In this document: positions 885 to 11,845 of the stretch, one piece after another
Layout: each line of letters starts with the position of its first letter
Numbering within the stretch: the first letter of the stretch is position 1
NCBI GenBank assembly: GCA_027080545.1
Contig: JALWRV010000112.1
Span: forward strand, 1-27,224
Reading direction: 5' to 3'
Source of the DNA: Parvularculaceae bacterium
GTDB lineage: Bacteria; Pseudomonadota; Alphaproteobacteria; Caulobacterales; Parvularculaceae
Length of the DNA: 27,224 bases
Translations under genes and position numbers: made by a program
The notes under the pieces: generated by a model
Databases searched by the model: none
What the model was told of the DNA's origin: nothing
Seen by the model: the letters and a program-made list of their open reading frames with translations, nothing else

Positions 885-1799
885 TTAGCGGCGATAGTTA
901 AACCAGTCATCAAGTCGGGCGATTATGATATAGATCACTGCCAACACCACCAACACCCCGGCGGCAATTTGAAACGCCTCGCGATAATCTTGAGGTAAGG
1001 GGGCATCAGCCGGTGGTGGAGTGCCTATTTCAGTGCTGGTACCTGTCTCGCCACCCTCTACCGCGTCACCTGCTGTGCTGCTATCGCCTGTTGTGTCGGT
1101 CGTCTTTCCCGTTGATCCGGTCTCATCCGTAGTATTGGTCGCATCGGTGTTTACATCATTACCCGTGTCACTATTTTTGTCACTCTCATTGCCATTCATC
1201 ATCGCCGCCCCAGCTCCGGCAGCCCCACCGGCTCCGGCAACGACAGCGCCGTCAATGGTGCGCGACCCCAATACATTATCTCGTCTTGGGGTGTTTTCTT
1301 CGGGGGTGATGCGGGTTTCATCCTCCACCGTCCCCTCTTCGGAGGCTTCCGGGGGTAAATCGGTGAGGAACAGGGCAGCCTCGGCGGCTCGGCGGCGCAC
1401 CAGACCGGGCACTTCTTGTTTGCGCCCATTGATTGAGGCCTTGTTCCACCAAGTGATGGCTTCGGCAGCTTCGAAATATTTATTCTTGTTGAGCAGTCTT
1501 CGGGCCGTTGATCCACGAAAGGCATTGATCCCGATATTATAGGCTAGGGAAACCAGCGCATCGAATTGGTTTTGCCCCAGTGGCACATTGACTGCGCTGC
1601 TAATGCCATTTTCAAATCGGGTGAGGTCCTGACGTAACAGGTTTTCGGCCTCTTGCTCGGAAATGCTCATACCCTCGGATACATCACTACCCGTATGGCC
1701 ATAGCCAATGGTCCATATGCCCGCAATATCCTGGTAGGCCTCCAAGCGCAGGCCTTCGAAATGTTTGATCAGGTCAATACCTGTTTGTGAGACTTTCAT
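885..1799 (-). CDS. GH24 (phage lambda/T4/P21-type) lysozyme with acidic low-complexity linker and C-terminal TM helix
   Basis: Intact E-X8-D-X5-T triad (FEGLRLEAYQDIAGIWT), TIGYGHT, NQFDALVSLAYNIG and GLVRRRAAEAALF. Start at ATG 1799 (MKVSQ) chosen because GGAG lies just upstream. C-terminal AFQIAAGVLVVLAVIYIIIA-RLDDWFNYRR. Confidence 0.9.
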   Translation of the reverse strand: MKVSQTGIDLIKHFEGLRLEAYQDIAGIWTIGYGHTGSDVSEGMSISEQEAENLLRQDLTRFENGISSAVNVPLGQNQFDALVSLAYNIGINAFRGSTARRLLNKNKYFEAAEAITWWNKASINGRKQEVPGLVRRRAAEAALFLTDLPPEASEEGTVEDETRITPEENTPRRDNVLGSRTIDGAVVAGAGGAAGAGAAMMNGNESDKNSDTGNDVNTDATNTTDETGSTGKTTDTTGDSSTAGDAVEGGETGTSTEIGTPPPADAPLPQDYREAFQIAAGVLVVLAVIYIIIARLDDWFNYRR

Positions 1800-2233
1800 T
1801 CTACTCCCCAAACCATACACGCCCCCATACTCCAGCCATTATGTCAGCAAAACCCGCCACAGGAAAGATAGGCCATAATGTTAGGGCGGGGATAAGATGG
1901 GAAGGGCAGTGGCCAGCCTAAAAGCGCACAATTTGCGCATTATGGAGCGATATGCCCTCACAATGGCGTCAATTGCCCCCTATTGGCTCTTTGTGACCTA
2001 AATAGGCCTGAAGAGGCCTTTATTTGGACATCAGCGATTATTAGCAAAAACCACCAAATTGCGCGTCAAACCTTGTGTCACGGGCCGTTCCCGATTATGC
2101 AGCGCTAAATCCCTAGTCTGTTTCATCTTGGGTGGCAGCTAGGCACATTTCTCGCAAGTGAAGCCAGAGCAGTAAACTGGGCATGGATGGGCAAGATTAA
2201 GATGTCACTTAGAGTTTGGGTTTAGGGAGTAGA
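1800..2233. repeat. 15-bp inverted repeat (14/15 identical) at 1800-1814 and 2219-2233 bracketing the lysozyme/dksA divergent intergenic region
   Basis: Minus strand of 1800-1814 = GGTTTGGGGAGTAGA; plus strand of 2219-2233 = GGTTTAGGGAGTAGA. Each copy contains the Shine-Dalgarno of its gene. Confidence 0.6.
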
Positions 2234-2242
2234 GTTAAGATT

Positions 2243-2659
2243 ATGTCAGTAACAAAAATTGTTGAATATCGCCCTTCAGCTGATGAACCTTATATGAACG
2301 AGCAAATGCTCAACTATTTCCGTCAGAAATTGCTTGATTGGAAAGAGGAAATTCTCAAAGAGAGCAAAGACACGCTGGATCAATTGCAGGAAGAAAATTT
2401 GCGCATGCCGGATGCGGCCGATCGGGCCTCCAGCGAGTCTGATAAATTTCTCGAATTGCGCACAAGAGATCGTCAGCGCAAATTAATCACCAAAATTGAT
2501 GCGGCGTTACGACGCATCGACACGGGTGAATATGGCTATTGCGAGGACACAGGCGAGCCGATTGGGGTTGGTCGTCTGGAAGCGCGTCCGATTACGACCT
2601 TGTGTATTGAAGCGCAAGAACGCCATGAACGCAGCGAAAAAGTGCATCGCGCGGACTAA
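2243..2659 (+). CDS. dksA: RNA polymerase-binding transcription factor DksA (alphaproteobacterial 2-Cys type)
   Basis: EPYMNEQMLNYFRQKL, coiled-coil tip DAADRA, RTRDRQRKLITKIDAALRRI, YGYCEDTGEPIG...RLEARP...LCIEAQE. ATG 2243 follows GGAG. Confidence 0.95.
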   Translation: MSVTKIVEYRPSADEPYMNEQMLNYFRQKLLDWKEEILKESKDTLDQLQEENLRMPDAADRASSESDKFLELRTRDRQRKLITKIDAALRRIDTGEYGYCEDTGEPIGVGRLEARPITTLCIEAQERHERSEKVHRAD

Positions 2660-9198: not shown

Positions 9199-10154
9199 GC
9201 ATCGTCGAAAAAGCAGCCAACCTGTCCGGAGGGACTGTGCGTCGACGCTCAATGAAGCGTGTGCGCGAACGGCGTGGGCTTGGACCCTCGAACGGATCAC
9301 AGACCGAAACGTTTCAAACCGTTAAACTTGATAATGAGCTTATCGCTGAGCAGGGGTTTTACACTCCCACGGCTAAGCGTAAACGTTTGGCGTTGGAGTT
9401 GCGGGCAATCAAGCGTCGCTTGTTGCGCCGGCTTGATTTTTCTCGCCACGGAACCATTTCCCATAAAGCAGGAGAGCGGCAGAAAAATGTTGTCCTCCTA
9501 ACCTCAACGCGCCCAGCAGAAGGTAAAACATTTACCGCTATCAATCTGGCCCTGTCGCTTGCGATTGAGGATGGTATCCCGGTTTTGTTGATTGATGCGG
9601 ATGTACCGCGTCCGAAGGTTTTCGCTCAGCTGGGCCTAGATGCTGGAATTGGATTAACCGATCATGTCTTGGATCCCTCATTGGATATTTCTGATTTGAT
9701 CGTGAAGGCCGAGGGGCTTGATCTATCGTTAATGTCACAGGGTAAATCGAGCGAAGCCCCCAATGAAATATTTTCTAGACGAGAAATGAAAGAATTGGTT
9801 CGGGAATTATCATTACGCTTCCCGGATCATTTGATTATCTTTGATACGCCGCCGGTTTTGGCAACACCCGAAGCCGTCACCATTGCCAAACATGTGGATG
9901 AAGTCATTTTTGTAGTTGAGGCCAGTGCCACGCCGGAGCCTGCAGTTGCGGCGGCCCTAGAAGAAGTGCTGGACGTGCAACCACGCATATCATTGATATT
10001 GAACCGGTGTTTGGTGCCCGAGCGCGCCAGCGAATATGGCTCCTATGAGGAATATTATTATAAGGATTTTGCAAAAGGCGAGCACGGACAAAATAGCGCC
10101 CCGCAAAACGCGCCTGAAAGAAAAGAGCCAAATTTGAGCGGAGAGGATGCATGA
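9195..10154 (+). CDS. Stand-alone BY-kinase (CpsD/CapB-like tyrosine autokinase)
   Basis: Walker A STRPAEGKT, A' VLLIDAD, B LIIFDTPP; Tyr cluster EYGSYEEYYY. ATGA overlap with the upstream gene. Confidence 0.9.
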   Translation: MSIVEKAANLSGGTVRRRSMKRVRERRGLGPSNGSQTETFQTVKLDNELIAEQGFYTPTAKRKRLALELRAIKRRLLRRLDFSRHGTISHKAGERQKNVVLLTSTRPAEGKTFTAINLALSLAIEDGIPVLLIDADVPRPKVFAQLGLDAGIGLTDHVLDPSLDISDLIVKAEGLDLSLMSQGKSSEAPNEIFSRREMKELVRELSLRFPDHLIIFDTPPVLATPEAVTIAKHVDEVIFVVEASATPEPAVAAALEEVLDVQPRISLILNRCLVPERASEYGSYEEYYYKDFAKGEHGQNSAPQNAPERKEPNLSGEDA

Positions 10155-11845
10155 AGGCGAAGCTGAAATATAGGTTGATCAGCGCTGTGTCGCTCGTGGC
10201 GGGGTTTTTGCCCGGGCCTGTTATGGCGCAAGTATCCGCTGGCAAACCGCCATTGGAATTGCGCACGGATTTTATTGGCTATGCGCTCAGCGCAAGCCCG
10301 CAGGTCACCTATACCGATAATGTGTTGTTGGATAGCGGGACGAATCCGCAAGAAGACGCTATTGCCTCGCTGATCCTCAATGGTGGTGTGTTTGTTAATC
10401 GGCCACATTTTACGGGCCTGGTTTCTGGGGATGTTCGGTTTGGGGGCTATTTAAACCCGGCGACGGATAATGCCGGTGTTGAGCAATATGATCAGTTCAG
10501 AGTAGATAAAAATGTTACCGGTGCCGGGACAATAAAATTTATCGATAATCTGTTGTTCCTTGATTTGGGATTGGCAGCGCAACAGCAAGCCCTTGGCCAA
10601 AATGCGGCAATTGCAGACCGTCAAGGGGCTGCAAATGAACAGCGGGCCGAAGCCTTGTCTTATAGCGTTAGCCCCTATCTCTATTCCAAATTTTCCAATG
10701 AGGGATCAGCCGAAGCGCGTTATCGCTTTACCCGGGTAACTGTGGATGACGCAGATAAGGTAAGCGGTGTTGAAAACTATCTAAACGATAGCGATACCAG
10801 CGAGGTTTTGCTTTCCTATGATAGCGGTAAAATGATGGACCGTTTACGCTTTTCGTTAAACGCCTATGGTAATGATACCAAGGAAAGCGGTTCGGATATT
10901 TTGCCAGAGGTCGATTATTCGCAAGCGGCTGTTTATACAGATTTACGCTATCCACTCAATCGGCGCATTTCTCTTACCGGTACTCTTGGATATGATGACA
11001 TCAACACCAATGGTTCGGCTTATTTTGTCGATTCAGAAATATCAGGGGCCTTCTGGAAAGCGGGTCTATTGTTGAAGCCCGGCCATAGGACCCAAATACA
11101 AGTAGAGTTGGGTGAACGTTATGGGGGCACTTGGGTTGAGAGTGAGGGAGAATATCGCCTTTCTAGTCGATTGATGGTGCGTTCGCACATTTCGCGTACT
11201 TTCCAAACCCGCGCCCAAGGCATTTCCAATAGTTTCTCTGCGCTGCAATCACAAACGTTGAGCTATATTGATGATTTGCGGCAAAATACGGACCTCACAG
11301 CGAATGAAATTGCGGGTCGGGCCGTGACCTTTAATTCTAATCTCACCGATTTGAATCGAGGGCGTTCCGGTTTGGCGGCTTCTGACAATGCAACCTTGTC
11401 CGTGATTGGTCGCAATGCCCGCACCCAATACACTATTTCTGGTGGTTATGATAAATCTGATTTTGGTTTCCAAGAAACCGAGAGCCTGTTTATTGGTACG
11501 CGTGTAGAGCGGCGTTTGTCGCGGCGGACTACCGTCTATGGTCGTCTTAGTGCAAGGCGTGCGGAAACCACGGTCAGCCAGTCTTTTCTTGATTGCACCT
11601 TGGCCTTGAGTACTGACCCGGCTTTCGCTGGGCTTACGCAAGCCGAAATTACTGCCATTTGTCAAAATCCGGCTTCCTTTATTGATAAGGCGACAACCAT
11701 CGATGCGGCATTGGGGGGACGATATCGATTAGGGGATAATGTCTCGGCTTTTTTACAAATAAATCGTACCGATAGAAATTCGCAGAATAACAATCTCGAT
11801 TATACGCAAAACGCCGTCACTGTGGGGGTGACTTATGATTTTTAG
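10151..11845 (+). CDS. Outer-membrane beta-barrel protein, PEP-CTERM/EPS-associated (TIGR03016-like)
   Basis: Signal peptide, YTDNV near the N-terminus, alternating beta-strand pattern, C-terminal beta-signal VGVTYDF. Operon position fits; ATGA overlap. Confidence 0.75.
   Translation: MKAKLKYRLISAVSLVAGFLPGPVMAQVSAGKPPLELRTDFIGYALSASPQVTYTDNVLLDSGTNPQEDAIASLILNGGVFVNRPHFTGLVSGDVRFGGYLNPATDNAGVEQYDQFRVDKNVTGAGTIKFIDNLLFLDLGLAAQQQALGQNAAIADRQGAANEQRAEALSYSVSPYLYSKFSNEGSAEARYRFTRVTVDDADKVSGVENYLNDSDTSEVLLSYDSGKMMDRLRFSLNAYGNDTKESGSDILPEVDYSQAAVYTDLRYPLNRRISLTGTLGYDDINTNGSAYFVDSEISGAFWKAGLLLKPGHRTQIQVELGERYGGTWVESEGEYRLSSRLMVRSHISRTFQTRAQGISNSFSALQSQTLSYIDDLRQNTDLTANEIAGRAVTFNSNLTDLNRGRSGLAASDNATLSVIGRNARTQYTISGGYDKSDFGFQETESLFIGTRVERRLSRRTTVYGRLSARRAETTVSQSFLDCTLALSTDPAFAGLTQAEITAICQNPASFIDKATTIDAALGGRYRLGDNVSAFLQINRTDRNSQNNNLDYTQNAVTVGVTYDF

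Follow-up and report, generated by a model that had tools for sequence, protein, structure and literature searches.

The gene at positions 885..1799 (minus strand) of a 27,224-nucleotide stretch of a Parvularculaceae genome (contig JALWRV010000112.1, positions 1 to 27,224; hereafter the window) encodes a T4/P22-type muramidase of glycoside hydrolase family 24 (GH24) which is fused to a conserved C-terminal membrane module and which, with its active site preserved, is predicted to be catalytically active. The gene is vertically inherited in the Parvularculaceae, is distinct from spmX and belongs to an alphaproteobacterial type of “tailed” lysozymes of apparent phage-endolysin origin whose usual address is a flagellar gene supercluster. 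What is new is this recurrent flagellar address of a membrane-tailed GH24 lysin with an intact catalytic triad, together with the modular nature of its tail, from which a function can be proposed. Based on synteny we give about even chances to the possibility that the lysozyme is a membrane-tethered muramidase serving the passage of the flagellar rod.

The coding sequence comprises 304 amino acids plus the stop codon, in agreement with full-length orthologues. It starts with the ATG at position 1799, since the orthologues share the same Met-Lys/Arg-x-Ser beginning; an upstream GTG at position 1820, which the orthologues do not use, was dismissed as the start codon. The N-terminal GH24 domain (residues 1-147; 1359..1799) was assigned by the Pfam model PF00959, which matches residues 12-140 with an E-value of 6e-48 and a score of 162.7 bits (curated cut-off 22.3), its profile positions 1-125 being fully covered. 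The catalytic triad Glu15, Asp24 and Thr30 is invariant among 16 orthologues, as is Tyr22. The protein's N-terminus enters the GH24 fold directly, and neither a signal peptide nor a hydrophobic stretch was found there. The initial annotation, which described a GH24 domain with a complete triad and without a signal peptide, was therefore correct in this respect. The relatives of the domain in the PDB are endolysins, the P22 lysozyme and the muramidase domain of SpmX, all at about 1e-32 to 1e-37.

The domain is followed on the minus strand by an acidic linker (residues 148-165; 1305..1358; net charge -6) and by tail motif 1 (residues 166-201; 1197..1304), which consists of E-x-x-PRR-x-N-x3-SRT-x2-G and a Gly/Ala-rich, weakly hydrophobic segment (residues 179-201; Kyte-Doolittle (KD) value 1.23). 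The invariant residues of this motif are P171, R172, R173, N175, R180, G184, A188, G189, G192 and A194. An acidic low-complexity region of about 70 residues rich in Thr, Asp, Glu and Gly (net charge -13), with a Pro patch at its end, comes next (residues 202-268; 996..1196) and varies in length across the tailed lysozymes. Tail motif 2 (residues 269-304; 888..995) comprises the single strong transmembrane (TM) helix of the protein (residues 275-293; KD 2.72) and the end A-R-x-D-D-W-x3-R-R, which reads ARLDDWFNYRR in the window lysozyme and in which A294, R295, D298, W299 and R304 are invariant among orthologues. The parts of the tail thus correspond to those listed in the initial annotation. 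AlphaFold2 modelling based on 16 sequences predicted a helix at residues 269-303 (predicted local distance difference test (pLDDT) 80-95), the remaining tail being of low confidence and the Gly/Ala segment not helical. For a relative with a short linker (45 sequences) three tail helices were predicted, the first of which, at a low-confidence pLDDT of about 55, corresponds to the Gly/Ala segment.

Full-length homologues sharing 42-67% identity with the window lysozyme were detected in Parvularcula, Hyphococcus, Aquisalinus, Amphiplicatus, Marinicaulis and many metagenome-assembled genomes (MAGs). Since both tail motifs occur in 128 of the 130 retrieved homologues, the architecture is not a product of chance. 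As regards synteny and strain specificity, which the initial annotation had proposed to check, a tail-only profile matched 104 of 121 family genomes and 87 of the 99 high-quality ones, and dksA lies divergently on the 5' side of the lysozyme gene in nearly every family locus with enough flanking sequence, at a distance of 0.2 to 7 kb. The gene is accordingly not specific to one strain. Searched against 1.84 billion representative proteins, the same profile retrieved only 58 clusters, nearly all of which are GH24 proteins with the tail or short fragments. A word-indexed search with the tail alone gave only close family members, and an exhaustive profile search was needed for the wider relatives. 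In one complete genome the orthologue has a frameshift past about residue 60 and is thereby split (L059; G024:C1:1438607-1439408).

A further proposed check concerned selection. Because of the saturation of synonymous sites, which is seen even within the genus, we give the nonsynonymous and synonymous values (pN/pS) instead of dN/dS. In the comparison with a same-genus orthologue they amount to 0.10/0.72 for the GH24 domain, 0.07/0.67 for motif 1 and 0.16/0.69 for the TM region, which indicates purifying selection on all three, the acidic region being the fastest-evolving part (pN 0.36). A recent prophage gene at this locus was ruled out: phage genes are missing from the window, the family has conserved the gene, and in a set of 50,697 phage genomes no record reached a coverage of 80% of the lysozyme.

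The initial annotation had compared the protein with SpmX and had recommended a search for a separate spmX gene. The source assembly of the window (2.26 Mb, 457 contigs, 89% complete) indeed contains a second GH24 gene (G000:C456; L003:1486-2457, plus strand) with a DUF1489 gene downstream. Two C-terminal TM helices are clearly recognisable in its product of 323 aa, the end of which is basic; Asp24 and Thr30 are replaced in it by Thr and Ala, respectively, and the conserved Tyr is shifted. With the SpmX model (NCBIfam NF051871; equivalog cut-off 700 bits) it scored 161.6 bits versus 132-134.7 bits for the window lysozyme, the match of the latter being limited to its N-terminal 147 residues. 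Due to a score so far below the cut-off, automatic annotation will probably miss this SpmX-like gene. Genes of this type (323-325 aa) are present in every family genome examined, and the other families of the order have one GH24 gene each, with two C-terminal TM helices, namely spmX.

In a GH24 tree, which was built by a quick method and has poorly resolved deep branches, the 323-aa type and the SpmX proteins of the other families form one clade (SH-aLRT 94), and the window lysozyme falls outside it, among tailed and short lysozymes. The alignment of its tail with the SpmX-like tail by hhalign received a probability of 0.8%. Taken together, the tree, the lack of detectable homology between the tails, the sub-cut-off score and the coexisting SpmX-like gene rule out orthology to SpmX. 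The independent domestication suggested in the initial annotation is therefore supported, and no evidence was found for the suggested intermediate on the way to SpmX. The SpmX-like build noted there is superficial only: one strong TM helix plus the weak Gly/Ala segment stand against two TM helices in SpmX.

The gene had furthermore been called an orphan. This is a secondary state of the present genome, as the tailed lysozymes are usually found in the flagellar supercluster. Eight family genomes, which represent six genera, have flagellar genes between dksA and the lysozyme gene: fliX is encoded on one strand, and flgI, a flgJ encoding the rod-binding domain only and a flbY-like gene are found on the opposite strand, where the lysozyme gene comes next. 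Further named Parvularculaceae MAGs show the same fliX/flgI-flgJ-flbY layout. In 13 family genomes, including that of the window, these genes are missing at this position, and dksA is directly next to the lysozyme gene. The window genome has thus lost or relocated the flagellar genes of this interval, and the lysozyme gene only looks orphaned. In total, the location downstream of flgI-flgJ-flbY, which does not occur in the window, was found in eight family genomes and in eight lineages outside the family.

The weaker matches of the tail profile are lysozymes of 244-292 aa which possess both tail motifs with only about 35 residues between them. The acidic region may accordingly be understood as the expansion of a short linker, as the initial annotation had proposed in describing it as an insertion between two hydrophobic segments. 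Six of the seven short-linker relatives looked up are encoded in the flagellar supercluster of other alphaproteobacterial families, in the order flgF-flgG-flgA-flgH, dksA, fliX / flgI, flgJ, flbY, (FlaEY-like), lysozyme, the FlaEY-like gene encoding about 900 aa on the opposite strand. Downstream of the lysozyme gene the supercluster continues with genes for a TPR protein, NeuB/cytidylyltransferase (pse/neuB, flagellin glycosylation), flagellin, flaG, flaF and flbT. At two short-linker loci the lysozyme gene shares the strand of flbY and begins 73-160 bp past it. Of 401 genomes sampled evenly across the class, 30 carry the tail, eight of them on a GH24 protein; five of these eight genes are located near the flgI operon, one adjoins dksA and two do neither.

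FlgJ consists of the rod-binding domain only (open reading frames of 106-140 aa) in five family genomes including that of the window, and a GH73 domain was not found anywhere in these five genomes. The flagellar genes of the window genome comprise those for FlhA, flagellin, FlgH and FlgJ, and no SltF-like gene was detected beside its flhA. FlhA is present in all 99 high-quality family genomes. There are at least two types of flagellar cluster in the family, with FlhA scores grouped near 850, 715 and 675 bits, and many family genomes carry two flagellar systems. A description of a GH24 lysozyme in a flagellar cluster was not found in the searchable literature, which is incomplete.

The resemblance of the tail to that of prophage lysozymes, noted in the initial annotation, proved to be real, since the same motif is present on prophage endolysins. 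The tail, composed of SRT-x2-G with the Gly/Ala segment, a short linker, the TM helix and ARIDDWxxGRR, was also found on Peptidase_M15_3 domains in several alphaproteobacterial families (L073-L083, e.g. L075:9047-9805, minus strand). The encoding genes follow phage tail and tail-assembly genes, with a DUF6127 gene alongside; one genome holds two copies. Likewise, a tailed GH24 protein was found after a tail-fibre-like protein of 1,843 aa. The presence of the same tail on GH24 and M15 prophage endolysins points to a phage origin of the window lysozyme. Since it is carried by both folds, the tail seems to be a portable endolysin module independent of the catalytic fold, which speaks for a role in the targeting, tethering or release of a wall hydrolase. 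Among the other tailed proteins is a multidomain open reading frame of 678 aa with extra N-terminal regions, a GH24-like domain and the same tail at its end (L088:2442-4478, plus strand). Another tailed GH24 gene, encoding 395 aa (L096:8742-9929, minus strand), adjoins a gene with a lysozyme-inhibitor LprI domain (10026-11090, minus strand), and the two may form an enzyme-inhibitor pair.

Across 162 members the spacing between the two hydrophobic tail segments ranges from 8 to 269 residues (median 78), and the mean KD value is 0.72 for the Gly/Ala segment versus 2.32 for the TM helix. Lys and Arg cluster at two places, 3.2 residues immediately preceding the Gly/Ala segment and 3.7 following the TM helix, with an acidic stretch between them. 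Based on this charge distribution the spacer is most likely periplasmic and the C-terminus cytoplasmic. The charges of the tail are compatible both with a GH24 domain outside, as a tethered enzyme, and with one inside, on a hairpin. A similar puzzle has been described for SpmX (10.1101/847335) and for phage endolysins that end in a TM domain (PMC7143992).

The flagellar role is our best guess because the muramidase is encoded right after flgI-flgJ-flbY in relatives and because FlgJ is devoid of a hydrolase domain. Where FlgJ has a single domain, Alphaproteobacteria draw on another enzyme to cut the wall, which is SltF in the case of Rhodobacter and PleA in that of Caulobacter (PMC8781033). In a similar scenario the tail would hold the lysozyme at the inner membrane with the acidic spacer on the periplasmic side, and the lysozyme would cut the peptidoglycan locally so that the flagellar rod passes. 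It would thereby replace the hydrolase domain missing from FlgJ, as SltF and PleA do elsewhere, and would probably be an accessory, partly redundant enzyme. More tentatively, and with the odds somewhat against it, we propose that a GH24 endolysin was co-opted together with its own tail as the wall-opener of alphaproteobacterial flagella where FlgJ has no hydrolase domain, in an event separate from that of SpmX although partly within one lineage. In this case the tail would be a portable, Sec-independent delivery or tethering module and the acidic spacer would set the reach of the enzyme.

Several observations weigh against a flagellar role. The functional link is drawn from the gene neighbourhood, and dksA is an example of a non-flagellar gene with a stable place in this cluster. 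The lysozyme is kept in the 13 family genomes, including that of the window, from which the adjacent flagellar genes are gone. Conversely, three high-quality genomes of flagellated family members (G471, G508, G524) have no orthologue and two others (G482, G486) keep only tail-less open reading frames of 199-241 aa, which means that the lysozyme is not essential for flagella. At least one of the 13 genomes (G005) has a different type of flagellar cluster, its flgI being only 52% identical within the genus, and encodes an SltF-like protein with a signal peptide beside flhA in this cluster. According to the usual rules of membrane topology, a cytoplasmic location of the muramidase domain would also be possible. 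Finally, no sigma54 or CtrA site facing the lysozyme gene was detected in the window or in the family relatives. The dispensability is not fatal to the flagellar reading, because the hydrolase activity of the Salmonella FlgJ is likewise reported to enhance flagellum assembly without being required (PMC13584718).

The retention of the gene under purifying selection where the flagellar operon is gone, and independently of the type of flagellar cluster, would also be expected if the lysozyme served general or other local peptidoglycan remodelling, such as that for pili, the holdfast, the export of extracellular polysaccharides (EPS) or adhesins, or cell separation. Its flagellar position would then reflect inherited gene order, like that of dksA. 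In the window a surface-protein gene and an EPS cluster are adjacent to the lysozyme gene, and the initial annotation had considered a role in EPS or adhesin export. However, the relatives do not have these EPS and adhesin genes as conserved neighbours, and no evidence for such a role was found; the only context that recurs across several alphaproteobacterial families is the flagellar one. We therefore regard this explanation as unlikely.

The phage-like features of the tail would fit a self-contained lysis device, in which the tail acts as a built-in holin or release module in programmed lysis, e.g. for the release of gene transfer agents (GTA), or an inert leftover of a lysis cassette. The same tail occurs on M15 and GH24 endolysins beside phage tail and tail-fibre genes, and in phage endolysins of the M4Lys type the C-terminal TM helix is needed for lysis that is independent of holin and Sec (PMC7143992). 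The best NCBIfam match of the window lysozyme is the Bartonella GTA endolysin BgtA (NF058676), with a score of 154 bits that is below the cut-off of 315 and does not allow its assignment as a BgtA equivalog. GTA clusters exist in the Parvularculaceae, and CtrA boxes were found upstream of the gene in three relatives. However, the GTA marker does not co-vary with the lysozyme gene: it is present in four of five family genomes without the lysozyme and was not found in the window genome, which is 89% complete. A connection of the lysozyme to GTA lysis was rejected for this reason. The lysozyme gene was furthermore never located beside a GTA cluster in the loci read, and the release of the Caulobacter GTA is brought about by LypABC and not by a holin-endolysin pair (PMC13236601). 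Taking also into account that a stable vertical inheritance in a flagellar cluster would be odd for a suicide gene, a lysis device seems rather improbable.

An SpmX-like scaffold with the muramidase domain in the cytoplasm on a two-pass hairpin, serving localisation or binding instead of catalysis, would agree with the missing signal peptide, with an acidic loop bordered by positive charges at the two outer flanks of the tail (N-in/C-in), and with the debate on the compartment of the muramidase domain of SpmX itself (10.1101/847335), but it is very improbable in view of the invariant Asp24, Thr30 and Tyr22, which are replaced in SpmX (10.1101/418723), of a Gly/Ala segment too weakly hydrophobic to be a confident TM helix, and of the occurrence of the tail on the M15 fold, which speaks for the targeting of a wall enzyme and not for a GH24 binding surface.

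In the window the lysozyme gene is neighboured by a fragment of a GEVED/DUF11 surface protein (1-744) and by genes for DksA, a MAPEG protein and a GT4 (glycosyltransferase family 4) fusion protein. The reading of these neighbours agrees with the initial annotation, which had named an adhesin and dksA as neighbours and had noted the lack of a holin or integrase gene; no phage, holin or integrase gene adjoins the lysozyme gene. The divergent neighbour dksA (2243..2659, plus strand) was identified by the Pfam domains DksA_N and zf-dskA_traR and by its conserved synteny, and is flanked by flgH and fliX in relatives.

The intergenic region between the lysozyme gene and dksA (1800..2242, no strand assigned) is, according to synteny, the place at which the eight relatives have fliX/flgI-flgJ-flbY. 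Midway between the two genes there is a GC-rich hairpin with T-rich flanks (GGCCT-CTTC-AGGCC, about 2004-2019), which may be what remains of a terminator that belonged to the lost flgI operon. Oriented toward dksA is a sigma54-like site matching 9 of 11 consensus positions (about 2141-2156). Positions 1800-1814 and 2219-2233, located at the two ribosome-binding sites, form an inverted match of 14 out of 15 nucleotides. Same-genus orthologues have GGGAGTAGAG ahead of the lysozyme start and another genus has GGGAGTAC ahead of dksA. The inverted match therefore looks like a shared strong Shine-Dalgarno context and not like an invertible cassette.

Perfect CtrA-type boxes (TTAA-N7-TTAA) were detected about 160 bp upstream of the tailed lysozyme start at three loci outside the Parvularculaceae (L071, L072, L068). 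The three loci come from high-GC genomes and the distance of the box is nearly equal in them; only two of them have flagellar surroundings.

SpmX is the textbook example of a phage lysin that became a core gene of bacteria, its active site having been detoxified. The tailed lysozyme represents a further GH24 lysin of this order, frequently encoded alongside SpmX in one genome, which has long been kept with its active-site residues intact. The retention of an intact lysin raises the question of how it is made safe, be it by tethering, topology or timing. If the flagellar link holds true, GH24 muramidases would constitute a third enzyme class for rod passage where FlgJ lacks a hydrolase domain. 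In addition, being common to two unrelated catalytic folds and occurring in prophages as well as in chromosomal genes, the conserved tail is a candidate Sec-independent targeting or release module for endolysins.

Compared with known systems, the lysozyme shares with SpmX an N-terminal GH24 domain of phage origin, the lack of a signal peptide, a variable charged middle part and a C-terminal membrane anchor, and each of them is a chromosomal gene passed on vertically within this bacterial order. In SpmX, which has two TM helices and a different locus, D20 is replaced and T26 and Y18 are lost (10.1101/418723), the replacement being D20L/R/G, whereas triad and Tyr are intact in the lysozyme. The spmX locus is characterised by genes for a Mg2+ transporter and an isovaleryl-CoA dehydrogenase, the lysozyme locus by dksA and flagellar genes.

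M4Lys of the Salmonella phage BSPM4 and the endolysins of the Hafnia phage Enc34 and the Acidovorax phage AP1 (LysAP) likewise begin with a catalytic domain that is not preceded by a signal peptide and, by domain layout, have a C-terminal TM helix with a basic end like that of the lysozyme. M4Lys possibly has a second, weak TM segment as well, and in prophages the versions of the lysozyme tail are encoded past tail-fibre genes, the usual place of lysis cassettes. In contrast to the GH24 lysozyme, M4Lys and the Enc34 enzyme have a PHA02564-type catalytic domain, and all three are phage genes whereas the lysozyme gene is chromosomal and found in a flagellar context. The Gly/Ala-rich, weakly hydrophobic segment is of the kind able to leave the membrane, as in signal-arrest-release (SAR) endolysins and in the pinholin S21. 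SAR domains are N-terminal and use Sec, whereas the segment of the lysozyme is internal, C-terminal to the enzyme and even less hydrophobic; due to the missing N-terminal hydrophobic segment the lysozyme does not belong to the SAR endolysins.

The closest functional counterparts would be SltF, PleA and the GH73 domain of FlgJ, which are, like the lysozyme, wall-cutting enzymes encoded in or beside the flagellar basal-body genes. SltF and PleA also share with it a host FlgJ that consists of the rod-binding domain only and the same proposed role in opening the sacculus, although the proposed flagellar link of the lysozyme is drawn from gene neighbourhood. SltF and PleA are lytic transglycosylases and the C-terminal FlgJ domain of beta- and gammaproteobacteria is a GH73 glucosaminidase, whereas the lysozyme is a GH24 muramidase. 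The export of SltF is directed by a Sec signal peptide and that of FlgJ is carried out by the flagellar apparatus; the lysozyme has neither route and carries a C-terminal membrane tail instead.

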